Source of the DNA: an uncultured Candidatus Saccharibacteria bacterium
GTDB lineage: Bacteria > Patescibacteriota > Minisyncoccia > Minisyncoccales > CAZUZH01
Assembly: GCA_964624815.1 (NCBI GenBank)
Contig: CAZUZH010000001.1
Span: forward strand, 1,090-65,089
Length of the DNA: 64,000 nucleotides
Reading direction: 5' to 3'
Shown one piece after another: positions 5,573-62,610 of the stretch. Made by a program: the position numbers and the translations under genes. The notes beneath the pieces are model-generated. The model did not search any database and was not told the origin of the DNA. It was given only the letters and a program-made list of their open reading frames with translations. The stretch's first letter is position 1. Every line of letters begins with the position of its first letter.

Positions 5573-5625
5573 CCTGTACAGCGGTTGGACATTTTTAGCA
5601 AACGATCGTTTACTAAAAATGTCCA
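5573..5625. repeat. REP-like palindromic element, copy A (cctgtacagcggttggacatttttagcaaacgatcgtttactaaaaatgtcca)
   Basis: 52 of 53 nt identical to 24042-24094. Core palindrome GCAAACGA-T-CGTTTGC, shared with 19137-19172. Confidence 0.6.
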
Positions 5626-19107: not shown

Positions 19108-19136
19108 AACACAATCGGATATCTCGAGAATTTTTA

Positions 19137-19172
19137 GACATAATTGGCAAACGACCGTTTGCCAATTATGTC
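19137..19172. repeat. REP-like palindrome gacataattggcaaacgaccgtttgccaattatgtc (17-bp arms) between convergent genes
   Basis: Shares the core GCAAACGA-N-CGTTTGC with the elements at 5573 and 24042. Confidence 0.5.
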
Positions 19173-19216
19173 TACTTTATTGTAATGATGTAACATTACC
19201 TTTGTGCGTTATATTA

Positions 19217-19567: not shown

Positions 19568-19690
19568 ATCGATGCTAATATACAATGGATACTAATGATA
19601 CGAATATATTGTTCCGAGTCAAAACAAGGTAAACCGATTCCATTAGTATAATTAGTATGAATTAGTATGAATTAGTATGAATTAGTATAT
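19568..19690 (-). repeat. ~104-nt repeat module R1, a direct repeat of 19893-19994. Contains TTGACT-16 nt-TATCAT plus 10-mer tandem (attagtatga)x3. Ends 3 nt before the rplT start
   Basis: About 95% identity to R2. Confidence 0.5.
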
Positions 19691-19892: not shown

Positions 19893-19994
19893 ATCGATGC
19901 TAATATACGAATGGATACTAATGATACGAATATATTGTTCCGAGTCAAAACAAGGTAAACTGATTCCATTAGTATAATTAGTATGAATTAGTAT
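19893..19994 (-). repeat. Repeat module R2, with the same promoter-like content as R1. Ends 3 nt before the rpmI ATG
   Basis: Direct repeat of R1. Confidence 0.5.
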
Positions 19995-21622: not shown

Positions 21623-23203
21623 ATGATAAAAAATCAGATTAAAAAAATAATTAAAAAGGCAGTTATAGAGAAATTTGGAAAGATAAAAATTCCTGAAATT
21701 AAAATTGAGAAGCCGGAGAATAAGAAGTTTGGAGATTATTCTTCAAATATTGCTTTACAATTGTCAAAGGTTTTAAAAAAGAAACCGATTGAAATTGCGA
21801 AACGATTAAATCTTATGTTCCAGATTAAAGATTCCAGATTATTTGACGAAGTCAAAATAGCCAACCCTGGCTTTCTTAACTTTTATTTGAATAAAGAATA
21901 TTTACAAAATCAGATTCTAGAGATTTTGAAGAAATGCGAGAAATTTGGTGATTTGGATATTGGAAAAAATAAGAAACTACAAGTTGAATTTATCTCTGCT
22001 AATCCAACAGGTCCCTTAACAGTAGGTAATGCAAGGGGGGGTCCTTTTGGCGATGTTTTAGCCAATGTTTTGAAAAAAGCTGGGTATAAAGTTGAAAAAG
22101 CTTATTACATCAATGATTATGGAAATCAGATTTTGGCTTTGGGTCATTCAGTTTTGAAAGACAAATCCGCAAAGTATAAGGGAAAATATATTGATGATTT
22201 GAGAAAGAAAATAAAAGACAAAAATCCTCAAAAAGTTGGACAAAAAGCAGCCAAAATTATTATCAAAGAAATAATAAAGAAGACGACTAAAAAGATGGGA
22301 ATTAGACTTGATGAATGGTTTTTGGAAAGCAGGCTTTATAATTCAGGTGAGGTTGATAGGGTTTTGAAACTTTTGAAAAAGAAAAAGTTGATTTATAAGA
22401 AAGACGGAGCAGAATTTTTCAAATCGTTAAAGTTCGGGGATCAACGAGACAGGGTGCTTGTAAAAAAAGACGGAACCAAAACTTATTTAGCCGGTGATAT
22501 TGCTTATCATAAATATAAATTTGAAAACAAAAAATTTGATAAAGTGATAAATGTCTGGGGAGCTGACCATAGCGGTGATGTTCCGGGGTTGCAAGCCGGA
22601 GTTAGTGCTTTAGGACACAAAGGAAAATTAGATATTATTCTTTTGCAGTTTGTTACTCTTTTGCATGGAAAGAAAATGTCAAAAAGAAAAGGGATTTATG
22701 TTACTATGGACGAACTGCTTGATGAAGTTGGAAAGGATGTAACCAGATTCTTTTTCTTACAAAAATCAGCTGATAACCATTTAACTTTTGATATGGCATT
22801 AGCCAAGGAACAATCAAAGAAAAACCCGGTTTATTACATACAATACGCCTACACAAGAATACATAGTATCCTGAACAAAGCCCCAAATCCCAATGCCCAA
22901 TACCTAATTAAATCCAAAATCCCAATGACCAAATTGGAGGCTCCCTCGGAATTAGCACTTATTAAGCAACTTATTCGCCTGCCGGAGGTTGTTGAAGATA
23001 CTGCTAAAGATTATCAAATTCAGCGCTTGCCGAATTATGCCATGGAATTAGTAGCAGCTTTTCATAAGTTTTATGAAGAGTGCAGGGTAATTAGTAATGA
23101 CAAAGAAAAAACTCAAGCCCGACTTAATTTAGTAATGGCAACAAAAATCGTTTTAAAAAACATTTTATATTTAATGGGTATCTCGGCCCCGGAAAAAATG
23201 TAA
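21623..23203 (+). CDS. argS: arginine--tRNA ligase
   Basis: The N-terminal add-1 domain has FGDYSSNIALQLSK; a class I catalytic core and DALR anticodon-binding domain follow. Carries the insertion at 22880-22933. Confidence 0.9.
   Translation: MIKNQIKKIIKKAVIEKFGKIKIPEIKIEKPENKKFGDYSSNIALQLSKVLKKKPIEIAKRLNLMFQIKDSRLFDEVKIANPGFLNFYLNKEYLQNQILEILKKCEKFGDLDIGKNKKLQVEFISANPTGPLTVGNARGGPFGDVLANVLKKAGYKVEKAYYINDYGNQILALGHSVLKDKSAKYKGKYIDDLRKKIKDKNPQKVGQKAAKIIIKEIIKKTTKKMGIRLDEWFLESRLYNSGEVDRVLKLLKKKKLIYKKDGAEFFKSLKFGDQRDRVLVKKDGTKTYLAGDIAYHKYKFENKKFDKVINVWGADHSGDVPGLQAGVSALGHKGKLDIILLQFVTLLHGKKMSKRKGIYVTMDELLDEVGKDVTRFFFLQKSADNHLTFDMALAKEQSKKNPVYYIQYAYTRIHSILNKAPNPNAQYLIKSKIPMTKLEAPSELALIKQLIRLPEVVEDTAKDYQIQRLPNYAMELVAAFHKFYEECRVISNDKEKTQARLNLVMATKIVLKNILYLMGISAPEKM
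22880..22933 (+). repeat. In-frame repeat element in argS, 7-nt periodic (cccaaat/cccaatg...) with the AAAATCCCAATGACCAAA core (encodes APNPNAQYLIKSKIPMTK)
   Basis: The core recurs in ileS (26815-26848) and in intergenic 38279-38384 and 59070-59194. Confidence 0.55.
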
Positions 23204-23204
23204 C

Positions 23205-23828
23205 ATGAATAATAATTATTTTCTTTTGCGGCACGGGGAAGCTTTATCCAATCAAAAAATGATAAGTTCTTGCTGGCCGGAAAAATTTATTAATCCTTTA
23301 ACTAAAAAAGGGAAACAAGAAGCAAGAGAAGCGGGTTTGAAATTAAAAGATAAGAAAGTTGACCCTGTTAGAGATTACGGGAACAAAAATAAAACGCGTA
23401 GAGGGCAAATCTCTAACGGGGTTGATTTAATTTTCACCTCCGATCTTTTAAGGACAAAACAGACGGCCGAGATTGTCGGAAAAGAAATAGGCATTAAGCC
23501 AAAACCGGACAAAAGATTAAGAGAATATAATACTGGAATTTTTAACGGAGGGTCATTACATAAGTTTAGAGAAGTTTTTAAGAAAGAACAAGAAAGATGG
23601 AAAAAGAAACCTGTTAAGGGAGAAACTTATACTGATATAACTAAAAGAATGTATGATTTTTTTCAGGATATTGATAAAAAATATTCCAACAAAAACATCC
23701 TTATAATCAGCCATCAGCTTCCCCTTATACTGTTGGAAGGAAAGGTTAAAGGTTATTCCCAAAAGGGAATTTTAGAAAAATTTCCCAAAGGAAAAAGAAT
23801 CCAAACCGGCGAAGTTAAGCAATTATAA
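23205..23828 (+). CDS. histidine phosphatase family protein (phosphoglycerate mutase-like)
   Basis: LLRHGEALSNQ catalytic RHG motif. Confidence 0.65.
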   Translation: MNNNYFLLRHGEALSNQKMISSCWPEKFINPLTKKGKQEAREAGLKLKDKKVDPVRDYGNKNKTRRGQISNGVDLIFTSDLLRTKQTAEIVGKEIGIKPKPDKRLREYNTGIFNGGSLHKFREVFKKEQERWKKKPVKGETYTDITKRMYDFFQDIDKKYSNKNILIISHQLPLILLEGKVKGYSQKGILEKFPKGKRIQTGEVKQL

Positions 23829-23906: not shown

Positions 23907-23949
23907 CAAAATGAAACGCAGAAAGGTGACGTTTCATTATTTTTGATGT

Positions 23950-24035
23950 TTTAGTTAATTCTATGTTTTTTAGTTAATTCTATTTAGTTAATTCTATGTT
24001 TTTTAGTTAATTCTATTTAGTTAATTCTATGTTGA
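23950..24035. repeat. Tandem array of tagttaattctat(gtttt) units (about 5.5 copies, alternating 14 and 19 nt)
   Basis: Read directly. Confidence 0.55.
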
Positions 24036-24041
24036 TCACGT

Positions 24042-24094
24042 CCTGTACAGCGGTTGGACATTTTTAGCAAACGATCGTTTGCTAAAAATGTCCA
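24042..24094. repeat. REP-like palindromic element, copy B
   Basis: 52 of 53 nt identical to 5573-5625. Followed by the same TGATAAGAT-6 nt-ATG arrangement. Confidence 0.6.
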
Positions 24095-24189
24095 ATATTG
24101 GTTTCTTTAAAAAATGAGTTAAGCTCCTTTTTCTGTATCTGCGGGAAAATTAAATTGAATTATTAGGATTAATCTGATAAGATAAAAAT

Positions 24190-27100
24190 ATGATAGATTT
24201 TCCAAAAACTGAAGAAAAAATATTAAAATTCTGGAAAGAAAAGAAGATTTTTGAAAAAAGCCTTAAAAAGACAAAAAAAGGCAAACGGTTTGTTTTTTTT
24301 GAAGGACCGCCTTTTGCTAATGGGTTGCCCGGAATTCATCATCTTTTGTCCCGGGCCTTCAAAGATGTAATTCTCCGTTATAAGACAATGCAGGGCTTTT
24401 CTGTTGAAAGAAAGGCTGGTTGGGATACGCATGGTTTGCCAACGGAAATGGAGGCGGAAAAAAAACTGGGAATTAAATCTAAAAAAGACATAGAGAAAAT
24501 CGGGATTAAGAAATTTATTGAAACATGCCAAAATAGTGTTTTCACTTACAAAAAAGAATGGGAAGAATTTACAGAACGAATTGGTTTTTGGCTTGACTTA
24601 AAAAATGCTTATATCACCTGTAGTAATGGTTATATTGAGAGTTTATGGTGGATTTTAAAAAAGGTTTGGCAAAAAGGACTTTTATACCAAGATTATAAGG
24701 TTGTTCCTTATTGTCCGAGATGCGGAACCTCGCTTTCTTCCCATGAGGTCGCCCAGGGATATAAGAAAATAACTGAAGAATCAATCACGGTTAAATTTGA
24801 ATTAGCTGATGAACCGGGAATATATATTTTGGTTTGGACCACCACGCCTTGGACATTGCCCGGTAATGTTGCCTTAGCAGTCAATCCTGCTATAGTTTAT
24901 GTTAAATTTTCTTTAAAGAATTATCCTGGAATTTCTGATGGGATTTATATAACTTCAAAAAAGGACTTTGATAATTATAAAAAGGAGATAGAAAAAGCTA
25001 AATCTAAAAAGGGAGCCGGAGTAGAAATTTTAGAGCAGACTAAAGGAAAAGATTTAATCGGAAAGAAATACAAACCCCTTTATCCTAATAGAGCGCCTTA
25101 TAAAATAATTGGAGCTGATTTTGTTTCAAATAAAGAGGGCACTGGAGTTGTTCATATTGCTCCGGCTTTTGGCGAAGACGATATGAAAGCTGGTAAAGAA
25201 AATAATTTACCAGTTCTTACTACGGTAGATGAACAGGGCAGAATGTTAACAAAAGATTATCCCTGGAATGGAAAATTTATAAAAGAAGCTGATCCGCTTA
25301 TTACTCAAGATTTAAAAAATAGAGATTTAATTTTTCATACCGAGGACTATGAACACGACTATCCCTTTTGCTGGCGCTGCGACAGCCCATTGTTGTATTA
25401 CGCTAAAACCTCTTGGTTTATTAAAATGTCAAGTTTGAGAAAAAAACTGCTTGAGAACAATAAAAAAATTAATTGGATACCAAATTATCTAAAAGCGGGC
25501 CGTTTTGGCGAATGGTTAAGAGAAATTAAAGACTGGAATTTGTCCCGAGAAAGATTTTGGGGAACGCCTTTGCCGATTTGGAAATGCCAAATCGGCAAAA
25601 GTCAAAAGTCAAAAGTCAAAAGTCAAAAGTATTGCGACAATATTAAAGTTATTGAGTCAATCAAAGAATTAGAAAAATTAAGCGGGAAGAAAATTAAAGA
25701 TTTACATCGGCCATATATTGATGAAATAACTTTCAAGTGTGAAAAGTGTGGAGGGCAGATGAAGCGAATTCCCGAAGTGGCTGACTGCTGGTTTGATTCT
25801 GGTTCAATGCCTTATGCTCAATGGCATTATCCTTTTGACCCCGATATTATATCCTCGCAGAGCTCGGATAACTACGTGGCAAGAAACAAAGAATTATCAA
25901 TTCCGTTGCCAAAGAATTTTCCAGCTGATTTTATATGCGAGGGCATTGACCAGACCAGAGGCTGGTTTTATACTTTGTTGGCCGTTTCTACTCTTTTAGA
26001 ACTAGAACCAGCCTATAAAAATGTTATTTCTCACGGAATTGTTTTAGACGCAAAGGCGCAGAAAATGTCAAAATCAAAAGGTAATATTGTTTTGCCCAAA
26101 GATGTTATTGATAAATGGGGCGCTGACTGCGCGCGATTCTATTTTTACACAATAAATTCAGTAGGAGAACCTAAGAGGTTTGACATTAAAGATGTTCAAG
26201 AGATTTCGCGGCGATTTTTCGGAACCTTGTGGAACTGCTGGATATTTTTTTCTACTTATACCCCGTTAGAGATTAATGGATTTCAGCAAAAGCGCAGAGA
26301 AAACAAACCTCTAACGGGGTATAGTGATAAAAGTTTTAAACCTAAAAAAGGTTTTGAATCTAAGAGTTTGCTTGATTGCTGGATTATTTCTCGTTTCCAT
26401 AATCTTTGTAAGCAAGTGATAGAGGATTTAGATAGATATTATGTGGTAGAAGCAGCCAGGCTTTTTGAAGACTTTGTTGATGATTTGTCTAATTGGTATA
26501 TTCGGCGATCTCGCCGGAGATTTCAAAAATCTGAAAACAACAAAGAAAAAGAAGGAGCGTGTCAAACCCTTTATTATGTTTTGTTAAATCTAAGTAAACT
26601 AATAGCTCCATTTACTCCATTTATTAGCGAGGAAATTTATCAAGGATTAAAGACTAAAGATTCAGTTCACCTTTGCGATTACCCCAAGCCAAATAAAAAA
26701 TTAATTAATAAAGAACTGGAAGAACGAATGAAGCAGGTTCGGGAGATAGTAACCATAGGTTTAGCTCATCGGTCCGAAGCCGGAATAAAGGTAAGGCAAC
26801 CCCTTTCTATGCTCAAAATCCCAATGGCTAAATCCCAAATTCCAAATGAAATGTTGGAATTAATAAAAGAAGAAGTAAATGTTAAGAAAATAATTGGGGG
26901 CAAGAAAATAGAATTAAATACTAAAATCACACCTAAATTAAAGGAAGAAGGAATAATTAGAGAGGTTATCCGGAATATTCAAACAATGCGGAAAAGGGCT
27001 GGATATATTCCAAAAGACAGGATTTTAGTTCAGGTTTCTTGCAACCCTGATTTAGAGAAAATTATAAAGAAAAATAAAAATTTAATTCTGAAAGAAACCC

Positions 27101-27210
27101 GGGCGGATAAATTTGAATTTGGTAAAAAATCAAAACAAAAACCTGCTATTGAACAGGAATTTAAAATTGACCAGCAAAAACTTTGGATAGCGATTAAAAA
27201 GATTAAGTAA
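24190..27210 (+). CDS. ileS: isoleucine--tRNA ligase (type 2, eukaryote/archaea-like)
   Basis: HIGH-class motif (PGIHH), KMSKSKGN, editing domain. Carries two in-frame repeat insertions (25596-25630, 26815-26848). Confidence 0.9.
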   Translation: MIDFPKTEEKILKFWKEKKIFEKSLKKTKKGKRFVFFEGPPFANGLPGIHHLLSRAFKDVILRYKTMQGFSVERKAGWDTHGLPTEMEAEKKLGIKSKKDIEKIGIKKFIETCQNSVFTYKKEWEEFTERIGFWLDLKNAYITCSNGYIESLWWILKKVWQKGLLYQDYKVVPYCPRCGTSLSSHEVAQGYKKITEESITVKFELADEPGIYILVWTTTPWTLPGNVALAVNPAIVYVKFSLKNYPGISDGIYITSKKDFDNYKKEIEKAKSKKGAGVEILEQTKGKDLIGKKYKPLYPNRAPYKIIGADFVSNKEGTGVVHIAPAFGEDDMKAGKENNLPVLTTVDEQGRMLTKDYPWNGKFIKEADPLITQDLKNRDLIFHTEDYEHDYPFCWRCDSPLLYYAKTSWFIKMSSLRKKLLENNKKINWIPNYLKAGRFGEWLREIKDWNLSRERFWGTPLPIWKCQIGKSQKSKVKSQKYCDNIKVIESIKELEKLSGKKIKDLHRPYIDEITFKCEKCGGQMKRIPEVADCWFDSGSMPYAQWHYPFDPDIISSQSSDNYVARNKELSIPLPKNFPADFICEGIDQTRGWFYTLLAVSTLLELEPAYKNVISHGIVLDAKAQKMSKSKGNIVLPKDVIDKWGADCARFYFYTINSVGEPKRFDIKDVQEISRRFFGTLWNCWIFFSTYTPLEINGFQQKRRENKPLTGYSDKSFKPKKGFESKSLLDCWIISRFHNLCKQVIEDLDRYYVVEAARLFEDFVDDLSNWYIRRSRRRFQKSENNKEKEGACQTLYYVLLNLSKLIAPFTPFISEEIYQGLKTKDSVHLCDYPKPNKKLINKELEERMKQVREIVTIGLAHRSEAGIKVRQPLSMLKIPMAKSQIPNEMLELIKEEVNVKKIIGGKKIELNTKITPKLKEEGIIREVIRNIQTMRKRAGYIPKDRILVQVSCNPDLEKIIKKNKNLILKETRADKFEFGKKSKQKPAIEQEFKIDQQKLWIAIKKIK
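25596..25630 (+). repeat. Perfect tandem (caaaagt)x5 heptamer array in-frame in ileS (encodes KSQKSKVKSQK)
   Basis: Read directly. Related arrays occur in pth (56261-56291) and topA (53881-53905). Confidence 0.6.
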
Positions 27211-31306: not shown

Positions 31307-32740
31307 ATGAGTAAAGAACAAAATAAAAATAAAGATTTAATGGAAAAAATTGTATCTCTTGCCAAAAGGCGGGGCTTTGTTTTCCTTTCGTCAGAAATTT
31401 ACGGCGGTTTTTCAAGCTCCTATGATTATGGACCATTAGGAGTTGAACTAAAAAATAATATCAAGCATGCATGGTGGAAAACAATGGTAAGAGAACAAAA
31501 GAACATTGTTGGATTAGATTCGGCAATTTTAATGTCGCCGAAAATATGGAAAGCTTCAGGTCATTTAACAGCTGGTTTTGCCGATGAGTTAGTTGAATGC
31601 AAAAAATGCCATAAACGATTTCGAAAAGACGAAATTGAAAAATTCCCGCTTTCGCTAAGGCTTCGGCGGGCAAGCAAAATCCAAAATCAAAATGTCAAAT
31701 CGAGTCCAAAATCCAAAATTCAAAACCTAAAGTGTCCGGAGTGCGGAGGCGAGCTTACAAAAGAAAAGAAATTCAACTTGATGATGAAAACTTTTGTAGG
31801 ACCAGTAGAAGATGAAGCGGCAGTAACATACTTAAGAGCAGAAACTTGTCAGGGAATTTATATGAATTATAAGAATGTTCTTAATTCAATGAGAATGAAA
31901 ATTCCTTTTGGTATTGCCCAGATTGGAAAAGCCTTTCGTAATGAGATTACTCCCGGAAACTTTACTTATAGAACTAGAGAATTTGAGCAGATGGAGATGC
32001 AATTTTTTATAAATTCAAAAGAGTCCCCAAAATGGTTTGATTATTGGAAAAAAGAAAGAATGAAATGGTATTTGGATTTGGGAATTAAAAAAGAAAATTT
32101 AAGATTTAGGGAGCATAAAAAAAATGAACTGGCTCATTATGCTAAAAGAGCAGTTGACATTGAATACAAATTTCCCTGGGGCTGGAAAGAGATCGAAGGA
32201 ATTCATGACCGTGGGGATTGGGATTTATCAAATCACTCAAAGCACAGCGGTAATGATCTAAGTTATTTCGACGAGAATACAAAGAAAAAATATACTCCTC
32301 ATGTTATTGAAACTTCTGCAGGAGCTGACCGCAGTACTTTGGTTCTCTTGGTTGATGCTTATTCTGAAATAAAAGGAGGTAGAACAGCTACTACTAAGTC
32401 GGCCAAAGAAATAGAAGTGGTTTTGAAATTTCATCCAAGCTTATGTCCTTTGAAAGTTGCAGTTCTGCCTTTGGTGAAAAACAAACCCGAATTAGTTAAA
32501 AAAGCTAAACAAGTTTATAAGCTCTTGCAGCCTCACTTTATGTGCCAATATGATGAAGTCGGATCTATTGGCAGGCGTTACCGCCGCCAAGACGAAGTAG
32601 GAACCTTATGGTGTATTACGATAGATTTCGAAAGTTTGGAAAAAGATGATGTAACTATCAGAGATCGCGACAGCATGAAACAAGAACGAGTAAAGATTAA
32701 TGAACTAATTGAGGTAATCAATCAAAAATTTAATGTTTAA
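31307..32740 (+). CDS. glyQS: glycine--tRNA ligase (alpha2 homodimeric type)
   Basis: N-terminal SSEIYGGFSSSYDYGPLGVELKNNIK signature of glyQS-type GlyRS; class II motifs; C-terminal anticodon-binding domain. Carries the in-frame insertion at 31676-31729. Confidence 0.85.
   Translation: MSKEQNKNKDLMEKIVSLAKRRGFVFLSSEIYGGFSSSYDYGPLGVELKNNIKHAWWKTMVREQKNIVGLDSAILMSPKIWKASGHLTAGFADELVECKKCHKRFRKDEIEKFPLSLRLRRASKIQNQNVKSSPKSKIQNLKCPECGGELTKEKKFNLMMKTFVGPVEDEAAVTYLRAETCQGIYMNYKNVLNSMRMKIPFGIAQIGKAFRNEITPGNFTYRTREFEQMEMQFFINSKESPKWFDYWKKERMKWYLDLGIKKENLRFREHKKNELAHYAKRAVDIEYKFPWGWKEIEGIHDRGDWDLSNHSKHSGNDLSYFDENTKKKYTPHVIETSAGADRSTLVLLVDAYSEIKGGRTATTKSAKEIEVVLKFHPSLCPLKVAVLPLVKNKPELVKKAKQVYKLLQPHFMCQYDEVGSIGRRYRRQDEVGTLWCITIDFESLEKDDVTIRDRDSMKQERVKINELIEVINQKFNV
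31676..31729 (+). repeat. 54-nt in-frame insertion element in glyQS (KIQNQNVKSSPKSKIQNL), homologous to 15005-15058
   Basis: Nucleotide-level identity to the polX insert. Confidence 0.6.
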
Positions 32741-38200: not shown

Positions 38201-38238
38201 TGCCTAAAATTAAAACTTCAGCTAAAATATAAACAGCA

Positions 38239-38384
38239 AATTAACCTAATTATTCTAATTAACCTAATTAACCTAATCAATGTCTAAATCCCAATACCCA
38301 ATGACTAAAATGATTGATACATTAGACATTTTGTCATTGGGATTTGATTAGAAATTAGAAATTAGAAATTAGAAATCGAAAATT
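38239..38384. repeat. Composite intergenic repeat X: aattaacctaattattctaatta, then inverted copies of the AATCCCAATACCCAATGAC unit, then (gaaatta)n heptamers. Abuts the tatD ATG
   Basis: A 25-nt identical block and related architecture are found at 59013-59194. Confidence 0.55.
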
Positions 38385-39263
38385 ATGCTAATTGATACTC
38401 ATGCCCATCTTAATTTTGCTGTTTTTAAAAATGATAGAGATAAAGTAATAAGACGGGCGCTAGACAATAATGTCTGGTTCATTAATGTTGGCTCAAATTA
38501 TGAAAGAAGCAAAAAAGCAGTAGAAATTGCTCAAAAATATGCTGAAGGGATATATGCGGCAATTGGTTTACATCCAATTCATCTCCAAGAAACAAAAGAC
38601 CCAGAGGAATTATCTGGAAGTTTAAGCCCAGCAGAGAAATTTGATAAAGAAAAATATTATCAATTAGCGCAGTCACCAAAAGTAGTAGCAATTGGCGAAA
38701 TAGGCTTGGATTATTATCATTTATCAGGGAATAAGAAATCAACGAAATGTGCGGAGGCCTTGCCTCCGCACATTTGCGGAGGTCTTGCCTCCGCACACTC
38801 TACACAGATAGAATTGCAAAAGCAAGTTTTTGTTCATCAATTAGAATTAGCTAACGAAATAGACAAACCAGTTATTGTTCATTGCCGGGAAGCGCACAAG
38901 GATGTTTTAGAAATTTTAAAGAAGCGAAAACAAAAATTAAAAAATCTGCGTGGAGTTATTCATAGTTTTTCCGGCCGTTGGTCCCAAGCTCAAGAATATT
39001 TTGATTTAGGATTTTTAATTGGTTTGAATGGCATTATTACTTTTGCCCGTGATTATGACAAGGTTATTATAAACAGTCCTTTGGAAAAAGTTCTAATTGA
39101 AACAGATTGTCCATATTTAACCCCAATTCCTTTCCGTGGCAAACGCAACGAACCTTTGTATGTAAAATATGTAGCAGAAAAAATCGCAGAGATAAAAAAC
39201 ATATCAGTTGAAGAAGTAGTAAGAACAACGACAGAGAACGCAAGAAAATTATTTAGTTTTTAA
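38385..39263 (+). CDS. tatD: TatD-family metal-dependent hydrolase (DNase)
   Basis: N-terminal MLIDTHAHLNF motif and TatD length. Carries the GC-rich insertion at 38748-38797. Confidence 0.8.
   Translation: MLIDTHAHLNFAVFKNDRDKVIRRALDNNVWFINVGSNYERSKKAVEIAQKYAEGIYAAIGLHPIHLQETKDPEELSGSLSPAEKFDKEKYYQLAQSPKVVAIGEIGLDYYHLSGNKKSTKCAEALPPHICGGLASAHSTQIELQKQVFVHQLELANEIDKPVIVHCREAHKDVLEILKKRKQKLKNLRGVIHSFSGRWSQAQEYFDLGFLIGLNGIITFARDYDKVIINSPLEKVLIETDCPYLTPIPFRGKRNEPLYVKYVAEKIAEIKNISVEEVVRTTTENARKLFSF
38748..38797 (+). repeat. Two tandem copies of a GC-rich palindrome (tgcggaggccttgcctccgca) inserted in-frame in tatD (encodes CAEALPPHICGGLASAH)
   Basis: Perfect hairpins, about 60% GC within an AT-rich gene. 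Confidence 0.6.
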
Positions 39264-52092: not shown

Positions 52093-54228
52093 TTACTTCA
52101 CAAAATCGCATTCTTTATTGCTGCATTTGATTTTTTTACCGGATTCCACAAGCAAAGAGCCGCATTTTGGGCAATTTTCTCCAGTTCCTGCCTGCCGGCC
52201 AGGCAGGGGTTTGTCCCACAAAGCAAAATCGCATTTTGGATATTGGTTGCAGGCATAAAATATTTTTCCTTTTTTAGTTTTCTTTTCAGTAATTTCGCCT
52301 TGACCGCACTTAGGGCATTTTATTCCAAGAGTTTGTTTCTCTAATGGTTCAGTGTATTTGCATTCAGGAAACTTTGGACAGGCGTAGAATTTGCCAAATC
52401 TGCCAAGCCGAATGACAAGTTTTGCTCCGCACTTGGGGCATTTTTTTTCAGTTTCTTTAATAATGCCTTTTTTAGAAACCTCTTCATATTTCTTTTCAAG
52501 ATTTTTAGCAAAAGGCTCATAAAACTTTCGGACAATCGGCTGCCATTTTTCTTTGCCTTGAGAAATTTTGTCTAAATCTTTTTCCATATTAGCTGTAAAT
52601 TTAATATTAACAATTTTTGGGAAATGTTTAACTAAAAGGTCATTAACAATTTCACCAATTTCTGTTGGCTGGAATTTTTTATTCTCATTTTTTTCAACAT
52701 AATTTCTTGTTTGAATGGTGGAAAGAGTCGGAGCATAAGTTGATGGACGACCAATATCATTTTGCTCCAAAGCCTTAATCAGGGTCGCCTCACTGTATCT
52801 CGGAGCAGGCTGGGTAAAGTGCTGGGAAGGAATAAGTTTGAGCAGTTCTAATATTTCATTTTCTTTCAGTAAAGGCAATTCTGCTTCCTGAAACTTTATG
52901 GGAAAGATTTTCAGAAATCCGTCAAATTTTAAAATTTGGCCCGTGGCCCGAAAAGTATAGTTATCGGCTTCAATATTTATTGCAGTGGAGTCAAAAACAG
53001 CTTGAGCCATTTGAGATGCTGTAAATCTTCTCCATATTAAATCATAAAGCTTAAATTGCCTGCTGTCTAGTTTTTCCTGCCCAGTAGCATCCCGAAGGGA
53101 TTGCTTCGGGGCCTTAATTTTCAATTGGTCTGGAATACGGTCAGGATAAGTTGGTCTAATTGCTTCGTGGGCTTCCTGGGCCCTGCCTTTAGCCTTGTAT
53201 TTTCTCAGAAATCCAGCCCAGTATTCTTTTCCATAGTTTTCAAAGATAAATTTTTTAGCCCCGAAAAGAGCTAAATCAGAAAGATTCAAAGAATCTGTCC
53301 TGTGATAAGTGATATGTCCTCTTTCATAAAGCTGCTGTGCTAAGCTCATTGTCATTTTAGCTGGAAATCGGAGTTTTTTCCATGATTCCTGTTGAAGGGT
53401 ACTAGTAGTAAAAGGAGGCAATGGATTTCTTTTTACTTCTTTTTTTTCAACATTTGAAATCTTATATTCTGTTTTGTCCAAATCTTTAACAATTTCCTCA
53501 GCCTCTTTTTTGTTTTTAATTCCAAGCTTGGGAATTGTTTTTCCATCTTTTTTTATCAGTAAAGCTTTAAATTCTTGCTTTGCGTCAGTTTCGCGCGATT
53601 GAAGCAAGGCTTCAATTGACCAGTATTCCTGCGCTTTGAAGTTCTTAATTTCTTTTTCTCTTTCAACTACTAAACGGACAGTCACTGACTGGACCCTGCC
53701 GGCAGAAAGTCCTTTGACAACCTTTTTCCATAAGAAAGGTGAAAGCTTGTATCCAACAATTCTATCCAAGACTCTCCGAGCTTGCTGTGCATCAACCAAA
53801 TTCATATCAATTTCCCTTGGCTTTTTCACAGCTTCCTTAATCGCCTGTTTAGTAATTTCGTGAAACACTATCCTTTGATAGGGTTTGGTGTTTGGTGTTT
53901 GGTGCTTCCCAAGTCCTAAGGCTTTGGTAAGATGCCAGGCTATTGCTTCACCCTCTCTATCCTCGTCAGTAGCCAAGATAACTGTTTCTGTTTTTTCTAA
54001 TGCTTTTTTCAAAATATTTACATTTTTTCTGGCTTTAAGCGGAACAACATATTTAGGTTTGAAGTTATTTCCAAAATCTATTCCCAATTCACCTTTTGGT
54101 AAATCACGAATATGACCCATAGTTGCGGCAATTTGGTAATTTTTTCCAAGAAACCCTCTCAGGGTCTTGGATTTTGTTGGTGATTCGACTATTACGAGAT
54201 TCATAAAAGAAAAATTTAAAATTGTCAA
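52093..54228 (-). CDS. topA: DNA topoisomerase I
   Basis: Toprim (NLVIVESPTKSKTL), a catalytic Tyr region and C-terminal CxxC zinc ribbons. Carries the (caccaaa)x3 insertion at 53881-53905. Confidence 0.9.
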   Translation of the reverse strand: MTILNFSFMNLVIVESPTKSKTLRGFLGKNYQIAATMGHIRDLPKGELGIDFGNNFKPKYVVPLKARKNVNILKKALEKTETVILATDEDREGEAIAWHLTKALGLGKHQTPNTKPYQRIVFHEITKQAIKEAVKKPREIDMNLVDAQQARRVLDRIVGYKLSPFLWKKVVKGLSAGRVQSVTVRLVVEREKEIKNFKAQEYWSIEALLQSRETDAKQEFKALLIKKDGKTIPKLGIKNKKEAEEIVKDLDKTEYKISNVEKKEVKRNPLPPFTTSTLQQESWKKLRFPAKMTMSLAQQLYERGHITYHRTDSLNLSDLALFGAKKFIFENYGKEYWAGFLRKYKAKGRAQEAHEAIRPTYPDRIPDQLKIKAPKQSLRDATGQEKLDSRQFKLYDLIWRRFTASQMAQAVFDSTAINIEADNYTFRATGQILKFDGFLKIFPIKFQEAELPLLKENEILELLKLIPSQHFTQPAPRYSEATLIKALEQNDIGRPSTYAPTLSTIQTRNYVEKNENKKFQPTEIGEIVNDLLVKHFPKIVNIKFTANMEKDLDKISQGKEKWQPIVRKFYEPFAKNLEKKYEEVSKKGIIKETEKKCPKCGAKLVIRLGRFGKFYACPKFPECKYTEPLEKQTLGIKCPKCGQGEITEKKTKKGKIFYACNQYPKCDFALWDKPLPGRQAGTGENCPKCGSLLVESGKKIKCSNKECDFVK

Positions 54229-55943: not shown

Positions 55944-56522
55944 TTAATTAAATTCACTCATTGCTTTTTCAATTCCCTGCCTTAAACTTGTTTCAATTGC
56001 TTTAACTATTTTCTGGAGAGTTTGCTTCAAGATTTTCTTTTCGTCTCTTGTGAATTTTTTGAGAACAAATTTTTTTTCAATCAGTTTGTAATGTTCGTAC
56101 GACGAGACGATAGGCCTAATTCCAATTCGGAAGCGGACAAAATCTTTTGTTCCCAAGTTTTCAATAATTGATTTAATTCCATTGTGGCCAGCTGGACCTC
56201 GGTTTTTAACAATTTTAATTTTGCCTATTTCTAAATCTAAATCATCGTGAACAACCCAAACATTTGACATTTGACATTTGACATTTGACATAATTTTCTT
56301 TACTGTCCTGCCCGATTCATTCATATAGGTCTGGGGTTTGGCTAAAATCACTTCATCGCTATCCCAAAACTTTTTAGAAATTTCAGCATTAAATTTTTTG
56401 GAAAACTTAAATTCAAGAAAATCATTTTCCTTAGCAAATTCATCAATTATTGTAAATCCAAGATTATGCCGCGTCTTGTCAAATTTTTTCCCCGGATTGC
56501 CTAATCCAATAATTAGTGTCAT
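55944..56522 (-). CDS. pth: peptidyl-tRNA hydrolase
   Basis: The start was moved to MTLIIGLGNPG. Conserved His/Asn region. Carries the in-frame (atgtcaa)n insertion at 56261-56291. Confidence 0.85.
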   Translation of the reverse strand: MTLIIGLGNPGKKFDKTRHNLGFTIIDEFAKENDFLEFKFSKKFNAEISKKFWDSDEVILAKPQTYMNESGRTVKKIMSNVKCQMSNVWVVHDDLDLEIGKIKIVKNRGPAGHNGIKSIIENLGTKDFVRFRIGIRPIVSSYEHYKLIEKKFVLKKFTRDEKKILKQTLQKIVKAIETSLRQGIEKAMSEFN

Positions 56523-57695: not shown

Positions 57696-59012
57696 ATGAG
57701 AAAACCAAAATTTCAAGCACCAACAGGTATGCATGATATTTTGCCGAAAGACCAGAAATACTTTAAAAAGATTTATAATGTCGTTGACAAGATAGTTGCT
57801 TTTTATGGTTTTGAGAAAATTGACACGCCGACTTTGGAGCAGGCGGAACTTTTTTCAAAAGGAATTGGACTGACAACAGAGATAATTGAAAAGCAGATGT
57901 ATGTTCTTCGCACAAAGGGCAAAGATCTTTTGGCTTTGCGTCCGGAAGGAACTGCTTCTGTTATCCGCGCCTATATTGAGCAAGGCATGGCAAGCCTTCC
58001 GTCGCCCATAAAGCTTTGGTATTTCGGACCATTTTTTAGATACGAGAGGCCGCAGGCCGGACGGTATCGTCAGTTTCATCAATTCGGTTTAGAAATTTTG
58101 GGAGAGAAAAGTTCAGCAGCTGATGCTCAGCTTATTCAGATTTTCTTCAATATTTTAAAAGAGCTAAAGATTAAAAATTTATTAGTTGAGATAAACAGCA
58201 TTGGAGATTCTCAATGCAGGCCATATTATAAAAAACTTTTAGTGAGCTATTTCCGCTCTCGTCAACAATCTTTATGTGCTGACTGCCGAAGAAGAATTCG
58301 GGAAAATCCCTTCAGAATCTTGGATTGCAAGGAAGAAAAGTGCCGGAGAATCAAAGCTCAAGCGCCTCAGATTATTGACCATCTTTGTCAGGAGTGTAAT
58401 ACACATTTTAGAGAGGTTTTGGAATTTTTGGATGAGCTGGAAATACCCTACAATCTTAATCCTTATTTGGTTCGCGGTCTTGATTATTATACTAAAACAG
58501 TTTTTGAAATAAGCAGTAGAGCTGAAGATACTTTTCTTTCTAATAATAAAGATTATAATGAGAAAAAAAATCTCGGAGCATTGGTAGGGGGAGGCAGATA
58601 TGATGCATTAATAAAGACTTTGGGCGGGAAGGAAGCTCCAGCTTGCGGCGGAGCTGCAGGCATAGAGAGAATTATAGAATTAATGAAAGAGAAAGACAGT
58701 AAAAAAGAAAAAGACGCAGCAATTGCTAAAATTTACTTAGCTCAGCTTGGTGGTTTGGCAAAAAGAAAAAGTTTAAAGCTTTTTGAAGAATTCCGCAAAA
58801 ATAAGATAAGAGTGGCTGAATCTTTTGGAAGGGATTCCTTAAAGGCCCAGTTAAAGACAGCTGATAAACTGGGAGTAAAATATACTTTGATTCTTGGACA
58901 GAAAGAGGCTATAGAAAGAACGATTATTGTCAGAAGAATGGATACAGGGAAACAGGAAATAGTGAAATTGGATAAAATTGTGGAGGTAATGAAGAGAAAG
59001 CTGAGAAAATGA
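57696..59012 (+). CDS. hisS: histidine--tRNA ligase
   Basis: Class II motifs 1 to 3, an HisRS-specific GGRYD motif and a C-terminal anticodon-binding domain. Confidence 0.9.
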   Translation: MRKPKFQAPTGMHDILPKDQKYFKKIYNVVDKIVAFYGFEKIDTPTLEQAELFSKGIGLTTEIIEKQMYVLRTKGKDLLALRPEGTASVIRAYIEQGMASLPSPIKLWYFGPFFRYERPQAGRYRQFHQFGLEILGEKSSAADAQLIQIFFNILKELKIKNLLVEINSIGDSQCRPYYKKLLVSYFRSRQQSLCADCRRRIRENPFRILDCKEEKCRRIKAQAPQIIDHLCQECNTHFREVLEFLDELEIPYNLNPYLVRGLDYYTKTVFEISSRAEDTFLSNNKDYNEKKNLGALVGGGRYDALIKTLGGKEAPACGGAAGIERIIELMKEKDSKKEKDAAIAKIYLAQLGGLAKRKSLKLFEEFRKNKIRVAESFGRDSLKAQLKTADKLGVKYTLILGQKEAIERTIIVRRMDTGKQEIVKLDKIVEVMKRKLRK

Positions 59013-59194
59013 CCAATTAACCTAATTATTCTAATTAGTATAATTTCACCCCGTTAGAAAATCAAAGATTTCTAACGGGGCAAGAATCCCAATGACGAAA
59101 TGTCTAATGTCTAAATAGTTTTGGTCATTGTGTATTGGGATTTTGGCATTGATTAGGTCAATTAGATTAATTAGAATAATTAGAAATTTTCATT
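59013..59194. repeat. Composite intergenic repeat Y, related to 38239-38384. Includes the hisS terminator hairpin ccccgttagaaa...tttctaacgggg and inverted AATCCCAATGAC units. Abuts the HIT ATG
   Basis: The 25-nt block ccaattaacctaattattctaatta is identical to X. Confidence 0.55.
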
Positions 59195-59530
59195 ATGCCT
59201 TGTCTGTTCTGTAAAATAATTAATAAACAAATACCGTCAGATATTGTTTATGAAGATGACAGTTTTATTGCTTTTAAAGATATTAAGCCTAAGGCTTCTT
59301 TGCACATTTTAATTGTTCCAAAAAAGCATATTACATCGGTGGCTCATTTAGATTCCAAAGACAGAGAATTAATCGGAGGATTGATTTTAACAGCTAAAAA
59401 TATTGCGCAAGATCAGGGAGTTTCAGAAAAAGGATATAGGCTTATTTTTAATGTTGGCAGAGGAGGAGGACAGATGGTTGATCATATTCATTTACATTTA
59501 CTTAGCGGTAAAGAAAGCGTGACTATCTAG
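59195..59530 (+). CDS. HIT-family (histidine triad) hydrolase
   Basis: HIHLHLL histidine-triad motif. Confidence 0.8.
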   Translation: MPCLFCKIINKQIPSDIVYEDDSFIAFKDIKPKASLHILIVPKKHITSVAHLDSKDRELIGGLILTAKNIAQDQGVSEKGYRLIFNVGRGGGQMVDHIHLHLLSGKESVTI

Positions 59531-59548
59531 TTTTTTAGACACTTAACC

Positions 59549-59607
59549 CCAATTTTCAATTTTCAATTTTCAATTTTCATTGAATGACTCAATTTTCAAT
59601 TTTCAAA
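59549..59607. repeat. (caatttt)n heptamer arrays arranged as inverted blocks
   Basis: Read directly. Confidence 0.5.
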
Positions 59608-59691
59608 CCCTTGTTTATAAATAAAAGTTTGAAAATTGTATCATTGAAAATTTATTGTAAATTGAGCCTTGAAAATTAAAAATTTATTAAC

Positions 59692-62486: not shown

Positions 62487-62489
62487 TAA

Positions 62490-62610
62490 AGTTAAAAGTC
62501 TAAAGTCCAAAGTTAAAAGTCGCAGTATTAAATATAAAGTATTTTATTTCATATTTTACTTTTAACTTTATACTGGTATTTTTAATTTTTGACTTTTAAT
62601 TTTTAATTAA
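62490..62610. repeat. Heptamer arrays (gttaaaa/gtctaaa/gtccaaa) and inverted copies flanking an AT-rich core upstream of ftsA
   Basis: Read directly. Confidence 0.5.

Follow-up and report, generated by a model that had tools for sequence, protein, structure and literature searches.

The repeat considered here recurs in a 64-kb stretch of a Patescibacteria genome (64,000 nt of contig CAZUZH010000001.1, assembled as an uncultured Candidatus Saccharibacteria bacterium; hereafter the window), where it lies within the arginyl- and isoleucyl-tRNA synthetase genes argS and ileS and, as inverted pairs, in the spacers upstream of tatD and of a HIT gene. As the original prediction had proposed, what is dispersed here is a repeat of the DNA rather than a motif of the proteins: the copies in open reading frames (ORFs) are read in differing frames and align to the arms of the spacer copies, which are untranslated. 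In our assessment there is about an even chance that the motif belongs to a family of heptanucleotide repeats acting at the DNA level, of the kind described as short tandemly repeated repetitive (STRR) sequences or long simple sequence repeats (LSSRs), with turnover by slippage, copying between loci and a filter in coding DNA, a mechanism that we infer. It is unusual to find such heptamer repeats translated, as floppy loops in essential enzymes; heptamers normally lie outside genes.

Frequency and unit structure of the repeat

The 10-mer AAATCCCAAT has 10 exact matches in the window, whereas 100 dinucleotide shuffles gave 0.68 ± 0.85 (maximum 4) and none of them reached 10, so that the suspected excess over chance was borne out. 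As a control for codon usage, 83 related Patescibacteria loci (1.33 Mb in total) were searched and yielded 26 matches, or about 1.25 per 64 kb; the density in the window is thus about eight times that of related genomes. The 11-mer ATCCCAATGAC occurs three times in the window vs. once in the same 1.33 Mb. Four of the 10 matches of AAATCCCAAT (3263, 16843 and 32217 on the minus strand and 42129 on the plus strand) are isolated inside ORFs, without adjoining heptamer units: two fall in hydrophobic parts of proteins that are probably membrane-bound, another in a segment conserved in glycyl-tRNA synthetase (GlyRS) and the last in LeuRS. These four are probably due to codon chance. The window has 35% GC and a coding density of about 89%, and no new copy was found in 4.6 kb of further contig sequence. 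The four repeat sequences quoted in the original prediction, from argS, ileS and the two spacers, all occur in the window as quoted, and its gene names argS, ileS, tatD and HIT agree with homologs and/or Pfam.

The repeat unit had been taken for a 17-mer. The repeat is real, but AAATCCCAATGACNAAA is AAATCCC + AATGACN + AAA, i.e., two neighbouring heptamers in DNA phased every 7 nt. When the ~100-nt intergenic element is read in 7-nt steps, it appears as a series of unlike units (AATGTCT, AAATCCC, AATACCC, AATGACT, AAAATGA, etc.) through which the 7-nt register is kept along the element. The four loci studied (argS, ileS and the two spacers) are mosaics of this sort, and clean tandem arrays of three to five units are found elsewhere in the window (25590, 38344, 53879, 56257 and 59547). 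Within argS, AATCCCAATG is translated as N-P-N and also as I-P-M, and the same family in ileS as K-S-Q-I-P-N. Since one 10-mer is used in three frames within argS and ileS, the repeat has to be one of DNA and not of peptide. A G-quadruplex on the GGGATTT strand was considered and rejected, the G3 tracts in the window copies being too few and too far apart.

Intergenic copies of the element

The inverted pairs predicted upstream of tatD and HIT are present, although their coordinates had been slightly off; the cores lie at 38286-38345 and 59084-59143. They belong to two copies, A and B, of one dispersed element in opposite orientation (Table 1). Copy A is 87% identical to the reverse complement of copy B over ~83 nt, and ~90% over ~100 nt by inspection; the alignment takes in the loop plus an asymmetric extra heptamer of one arm. 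Compared in the same orientation, the copies are only 72% identical. Both cores fold, as had been suggested (z = -3.99 for tatD and -3.16 for HIT), and palindromes extend over the entire spacers (38236-38384, z = -6.97, for tatD; 59013-59194, z = -7.59, for HIT), the latter with a nested CCCCGTTAGA hairpin at 59049-59080. The HisRS-HIT spacer is 182 nt long in the window, 1 nt in L092 (HisRS 72% identical) and 92 nt in L093, where it contains a different heptamer palindrome.

HisRS itself (57696-59012) has an insertion of ~11 aa, the RAEDTFLSNNKDYN region, which is also in the 80%-identical relative L091 and not in L092 or L093; it lacks heptamer periodicity.

Table 1. Positions of the repeat copies, related arrays and associated genes in the window
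Feature	Position	Strand	Description
PolX composite heptamer segment	15005..15052	+	translated KIQNSNVKSSSKSKFQ
argS	21623-23203		homologs and Pfam
argS loop insert	22883..22933	+	degenerate heptamer array, translated PNPNAQYLIKSKIPMTK
ileS	24190-27210		homologs and Pfam
ileS (AAAAGTC)x5 array	25585..25635	+	between both Cys of CxxC zinc knuckle (CQIGKSQKSKVKSQKYC)
ileS C-terminal loop	26806..26850	+	AAATCCC AATGGCT AAATCCC AAATTCC AAATGAA, translated SMLKIPMAKSQIPNE
Class II aminoacyl-tRNA synthetase (GlyRS-like) insert	31643..31732	+	GC-rich mini-hairpin and composite heptamer segment of PolX
Element copy A, upstream of tatD	38246..38344	+	~100 nt, heptamer-phased, dispersed
(TTAGAAA)x4 tandem array	38344..38383	.	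outer right arm of tatD-upstream palindrome; unit has stop triplet
tatD	38385-39263		Pfam TatD_DNase
Topoisomerase I (AAACACC)x3 array	53879..53908	-	within KHQTPNTKPY
Peptidyl-tRNA hydrolase (AAATGTC)x4 array	56256..56291	-	translated MSNVKCQMSNVW
Element copy B, upstream of HIT	59085..59183	-	inverted relative to copy A
HIT gene	59195-59530		
Intergenic palindrome	59545..59684	.	(CAATTTT)n and complement, z = -6.74
Intergenic palindrome	62487..62610	.	AAAGTYN heptamers and complement, z = -5.52

Coding copies in argS and ileS

The argS insert consists of the units CCAAATC CCAATGC CCAATAC CTAATTA AATCCAA AATCCCA ATGACCA, with a lag-7 self-match of 0.61, the top value among periods 3-12. The loop that it encodes measures 17 aa vs. 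10-11 aa in array-free genomes and is located in the anticodon-binding domain, between helices 402-419 and 441-450 of an AlphaFold2 model (mean predicted local distance difference test score, pLDDT, 79), in which residues 423-427 and 429-431 have pLDDT < 50. The nearest ArgRS homologs carry the names Parcubacteria, Paceibacterales, Minisyncoccales or Patescibacteria, and the JGI and Logan metagenomes of several samples include contigs that encode an identical protein. Across 120 close homologs the loop is hypervariable, and some of its peptides repeat every 7 residues, e.g., KCKMQNAKCKM, the three-frame translation of (AAATGCA)n. Residue autocorrelation in 103 distinct loops is 0.226 at lag 7 and 0.035-0.145 elsewhere, a periodicity explained by heptamers read in three frames, which give this signature.

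The C-terminal loop of ileS has its best self-match at period 7 (0.53) and the same length as in three syntenic orthologs. At the same site, other units are found in related genomes: (CAATTTT)n in L006, (AAAGATT)n in L007 and (AAGAATY)n in L008. At the zinc knuckle, which holds the (AAAAGTC)x5 array in the window, L008 has plain CEKC and L007 an (AAATCCC)n array. In both ArgRS and IleRS, differing units thus occupy the same loop in differing genomes, and the comparison of orthologs showed that the ORF sites are not random points of insertion: they are loops in which many related genomes have heptamer arrays. Neither the argS segment (z = -0.28) nor the ileS C-terminal segment (z = -0.17) folds, and these AAATCCC/AATGACN copies have no inverted partner; each segment aligns to one arm of the intergenic element over 18-33 nt (p <= 0.003 against shuffles).

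Another kind of insertion was observed at the zinc-knuckle region of IleRS. In L006 (11724-15218, 1164 aa) and L152 (11599-15027, 1142 aa) a histidine-phosphatase (HisPhos) domain is inserted inside IleRS at the place of the (AAAAGTC)5 array of the window; the window, L007 and L008 have HisPhos as a gene of its own, located between argS and ileS.

A second, palindromic family was also encountered in these genes. In ileS (26263-26325) and, at 23358-23420, in the HisPhos gene (23205-23828) there are clean palindromic insertions of 63 nt (21 aa) whose stems are CCCCGTTAGAG/CTCTAACGGGG; an intergenic copy lies at 59049-59080. The insertions are not in the L007 and L008 orthologs, and the one in ileS is not in L006 either. 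The family is translated in two frames (TPLEING, DPVRD) and has TAG in the third; possible flanking duplications of 4-5 nt (TATA, GTTGA) were noted, and the stem also occurs in the Patescibacteria loci L010, L041 and L056. A hairpin is kept within the ORF in this 63-nt family only, not in the AAATCCC/AATGACN copies of argS and ileS.

Other arrays and copied segments in the window

The composite heptamer segment of PolX matches 31672-31727 of the GlyRS-like gene at 43 of 50 nt (hand count) and in the same frame; the two copies have common internal features that are lacking in the PolX copy of L006. In L008 the PolX segment is shorter, and in L007 it is absent. The GlyRS-like protein is 16 aa longer in the window than in L008, and its insert includes a GC-rich mini-hairpin, CCCGCTTTCGCTAAGGCTTCGGCGGGCAAG (31643-31671), translated FPLSLRLRRAS. 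The 37-nt hairpin DNA recurs, with 34 of 37 nt identical (hand count), in the ArgRS loop of L152 (GCA_023131895.1, 11282-11320), in another frame and translated PAFAKASAGKQN, and heptamer units adjoin it at both places. The peptidyl-tRNA hydrolase (Pth) loop that contains the (AAATGTC)x4 array is equal in length to that of orthologs, which have other heptamer units there.

Spacers of the window show further structure. Of the 41 spacers that measure 60 nt or more, 19 have a fold z < -5 (mononucleotide shuffles), including heptamer-built hairpins, perfect palindromes and terminator-like stems. Palindromes at 24054-24095, 5586-5625 and 19135-19174 have 19-21 nt per arm and 95-100% complementarity, e.g., TTGGACATTTTTAGCAAACGA paired with TCGTTTGCTAAAAATGTCCAA, and could be operator-like sites; the first two sit in a dispersed ~91-nt repeat (89% identical) and precede ileS and ORF 5729 by ~100 nt. 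A ~100-nt direct repeat (19568-19668 and 19893-19994, 98% identical) flanks the L35 gene and holds 10-nt tandem units, GTATGAATTA, and a separate tandem array of TTAGTTAATTCTAT units is located at 23945-24030.

Distribution among Patescibacteria and beyond

The survey comprised 84 sequences (1.39 Mb), namely 80 loci from a scan of genome contigs by ArgRS alignment, the window and three more loci. Since these loci are centred on argS and ileS, the prominence of both genes is partly a sampling effect. Tandem arrays of period 7 numbered 85; among the other periods between 4 and 15, none exceeded 10. The window and three syntenic genomes, too, have hardly any tandem period but 7. The occurrence is patchy: an array is present in ~37 of the 84 sequences. 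Of the 79 non-overlapping arrays, 63 (~80%) lie in stop-free ORFs with a length of 90 aa or more; as such ORFs make up 90% of the surveyed DNA, the arrays are only mildly depleted in them (p = 0.007). The sense strand is the A-rich one in 51 of the 63 ORF arrays, and also in 23 of the 26 whose complementary unit is stop-free. Four units with a stop triplet (AAATTAG, AATTACT, AAAGTAG and ACCGTAG) are exclusively intergenic. Units are shared, with at most one mismatch, by 23.5% of the array pairs within genomes vs. 9.7% between genomes (permutation p = 0.0012).

A metagenome scan with a 22-base hairpin pattern (ATCCCAAT N0-7 GAC N20-35 GTCATTGGGAT) returned 58 loci, 39 of which are clear palindromes of AATGACC, AATGTCC and AAATCCC units; 36 of these 39 are on contigs with a GC content of 55% or more. 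On one contig of 62% GC, EF-Tu is 97% identical to a Pirellulaceae protein and tuf is followed, just 3', by the palindrome. Sixteen such contigs with a length of 5 kb or more gave 20 arrays of period 7 and at most one of any other period. ORF classification is unreliable in high-GC contigs, where spurious stop-free frames are plentiful. Some of their units match those of Patescibacteria, e.g., CAATTTC. The composite element of the window itself is also present in the low-GC contigs L103 and L143.

Perfect palindromes of (AATGACC)n AAATCCC and complement were seen in L125 (12353-12394) and in other high-GC loci among L094-L151, on soil and lake contigs with 56-70% GC. These contigs also contain further heptamer palindromes, e.g., of AGGAGGC and GGTTGGA.

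Origin of the repeats

If the repeats are of the STRR/LSSR kind, arrays of A-rich 7-nt units would arise and turn over through replication slippage, 7 nt per step, and could be copied between loci via template switching or ectopic recombination of similar arrays, for which a dedicated transposase would be unnecessary. In spacers, an array and its complement may then pair into long hairpins. In genes, the survivors would be frame-keeping, stop-free copies in permissive surface loops, translated in all three frames as disordered loops rich in K, N, Q, S and P; the translated peptide would have no specific function. A selection filter is indicated by the restriction of the four stop units to intergenic DNA, the A-rich sense strand of ORF arrays and the low confidence of the ArgRS loop. 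Composite copying between loci is evident because the element copies are ~90% identical, the PolX and GlyRS segments share 43 of 50 nt and the ORF copies align to the element arms. The exchange of units at constant loop length in IleRS and Pth fits concerted turnover within an array.

Several observations do not sit easily with this explanation. Because a single 7-nt slip shifts the frame, the birth of an array inside an ORF needs a 21-nt event or the import of a ready-made array; however, loop lengths in ArgRS show no clean step of +7 aa (21 nt), the peaks being at 13-14, 17 and 21 residues. No copy-number variation or indels were found over 16 kb in five samples of the population, compared as consensus assemblies. 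The greater sharing of units within genomes may come partly from base composition. Finally, AATGACC, AAATCCC and CAATTTY recur in Planctomycetota-type contigs and also in cyanobacterial STRRs; Mazel and colleagues reportedly described in 1990 the STRR unit (STRR2) TTGGTCA, the complement of AATGACC. Such recurrence across phyla is not expected from arbitrary slippage and therefore hints at sequence-specific machinery.

The main alternative, which we regard as somewhat unlikely, is a non-autonomous mobile element similar to REPINs, MITEs (miniature inverted-repeat transposable elements) or Rickettsia palindromic elements (RPEs), with its transposase elsewhere in the genome and the ORF copies as decayed, in-frame half-elements. 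This would suit the two ~100-nt copies in opposite orientation within unrelated spacers, the lack of the entire 182-nt spacer structure in L092 and the related composites in L103 and L143, as well as the in-frame 63-nt palindromes of ileS and HisPhos with their possible duplications and the GC-rich 37-nt hairpin found in differing genes, frames and genomes. Inspection of the edges of the ~100-nt element, however, revealed neither terminal inverted repeats nor a target-site duplication, and Pfam scans of the main ORFs of the window detected no transposase or Y1/RAYT domain, so that the proposed role of the inverted pairs as transposase substrates is so far unsupported. Moreover, the argS and ileS copies are unpaired and do not fold, insertions would not replace units at the same site and the same length across genomes, and the throughgoing 7-nt phasing is left without explanation.

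Under another, distinctly unlikely alternative, the spacer copies are functional cis-elements and the ORF copies tolerated by-products; the element could be an RNA hairpin with a role in the stability, termination or translational gating of adjacent genes, a binding array for a protein with a 7-nt footprint (Csp, or an S1-type OB fold) or a tag similar to an uptake signal. Both intergenic copies fold strongly and end ~12-50 nt from a start codon, many spacers of the window are strongly structured, the window encodes DprA, and the persistence of units across phyla suggests sequence-specific recognition. Hairpins of cyanobacterial STRRs have been proposed to raise transcript stability (PMC2670836), and TAACTGA repeats lie just upstream of start codons, with CspB binding heptamers (PMC4679880). 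On the other hand, the copies are inverted relative to their downstream genes, which excludes an orientation-dependent role. A TTGATT-17-TAGAAT match in the element points towards the HIT gene in copy B, and in copy A it points away from tatD. Promoter-like and terminator-like matches in both spacers were not above the counts in shuffles, and an Rfam scan at the gathering threshold returned tRNAs and tmRNA only, with no match at the repeats. The inversion of the copies and the orthologous spacers that lack the element or have other units also make a functional array less likely. As for an uptake signal, AAATCCCAAT has a density of only ~0.16 per kb of the window alongside many other unit types, whereas a single uptake motif is reported to occur about once per kb.

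It is also conceivable, but in our view quite improbable, that a conserved, sequence-aware process writes or maintains arrays with AATGACC, AAATCCC and CAATTTY in Patescibacteria, Planctomycetota and Cyanobacteria and, in Patescibacteria, repeatedly rewrites particular surface loops of core enzymes, the aminoacyl-tRNA synthetases among them. A protein motif or low-complexity linker under selection, with DNA likeness from codon bias, is very improbable: loops rich in K, N, Q, S and P do stand at matching positions in many orthologs, but the frame analysis contradicts it, as the same DNA in three frames gives unrelated peptides, the spacer copies are untranslated, the loop peptides of orthologs are unrelated and have the 7-nt period in common, and confidence in the predicted argS loop is low. 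Chance repetition of a word rich in A and C, in a genome that is AT-rich, would account at best for the four isolated 10-mers and has practically no likelihood left, being refuted by the shuffles, the related-genome control and the ~100-nt alignment of the element copies.

Comparison with known repeats

In most bacterial genomes, heptanucleotides are reported to be the most frequent of the long simple repeats, with slippage of the polymerase as their proposed source (PMC4679880, PMC4692102). Within coding sequence, non-triplet units are reported to be scarce (PMC4679880). The GGGGATT repeats of Nostoc and the GGGAATC repeats of Xanthomonas lie mainly between genes, an overlap with ORFs being found for 7-11%, and sometimes form inverted pairs (PMC4692102); the TAACTGA repeats of Beggiatoaceae (PMC4679880) are mostly intergenic in BOGUAY. 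The STRRs of cyanobacteria are described as 7-bp repeats of unknown function with the capacity for hairpin formation (PMC2670836). The repeats studied here resemble these STRRs and LSSRs in the 7-nt unit and the over-representation of period 7, in inverted array pairs able to form hairpins, in a patchy distribution across phyla and in arrays that vary in length and sequence at the same locus between relatives; GGGATTT, the complement of AAATCCC, is also similar to GGGGATT and GGGAATC. There are differences as well. The described repeats are mostly intergenic, whereas here ~80% lie in ORFs, including those of the essential aminoacyl-tRNA synthetases, TopA, Pth and PolX; the array sites are conserved loop positions; and the copies in argS, ileS and the spacers are mosaics, not homogeneous arrays.

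RPEs are palindromic, ~100-150 nt long, and keep their hairpin inside the ORF. Ogata and colleagues reportedly found them in 2000 both in intergenic DNA and in frame in housekeeping genes. The likeness lies in short repeats with this twofold location, which in RPEs are said to be translated as surface segments. The AAATCCC/AATGACN copies in ORFs are, however, single arms of 35-50 nt without a hairpin, and RPEs have a closer analogue in the separate 63-nt CCCCGTTAGAG family. REPINs are extragenic, present in hundreds of copies and accompanied by a RAYT gene. As in repetitive extragenic palindromic (REP) sequences and REPINs with their RAYT transposases (PMC3116915), two inverted short repeats round a spacer form a hairpin here and are dispersed in either orientation; unlike them, there are ORF copies, just two full copies in 64 kb, 7-nt phasing and no RAYT in the scanned ORFs of the window. 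The presence or absence of the element at the orthologous HisRS-HIT spacer recalls MITEs, but the terminal repeats and duplications of MITEs are not visible at its edges. The DNA uptake sequence (DUS) of Neisseria and the uptake signal sequence (USS) of Haemophilus each consist of one species-wide motif, at about one per kb. They are likewise said to be short over-represented words in ORFs and in inverted pairs after genes; the present repeats come in many unit types and in tandem arrays, are less dense and are shared between phyla.

Implications

Coding DNA would be expected to lose non-triplet simple repeats, since a slip by one unit puts the gene out of frame. In these Patescibacteria, they occur in essential genes near the density expected from the coding fraction, and in the same loops phylum-wide, which points either to a very high generation rate or to copying of frame-compatible blocks. 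A search of the literature on heptamer repeats in Patescibacteria or the candidate phyla radiation (CPR), and for the unit sequences as words, turned up nothing relevant. Since the same units occur in Pirellulaceae-type contigs, the 35-year-old question of the nature and origin of STRRs becomes testable by comparison across phyla, and this recurrence of units, which simple slippage does not explain, is the main source of lasting interest. If sequence-aware writing does take place inside essential genes of Patescibacteria, it would represent a previously undescribed turnover of protein loops by non-triplet repeat DNA. In the proteins of this group, the repeats account for much of the variation in length and of the odd low-complexity loops, and they thereby affect annotation, alignment and structure prediction.

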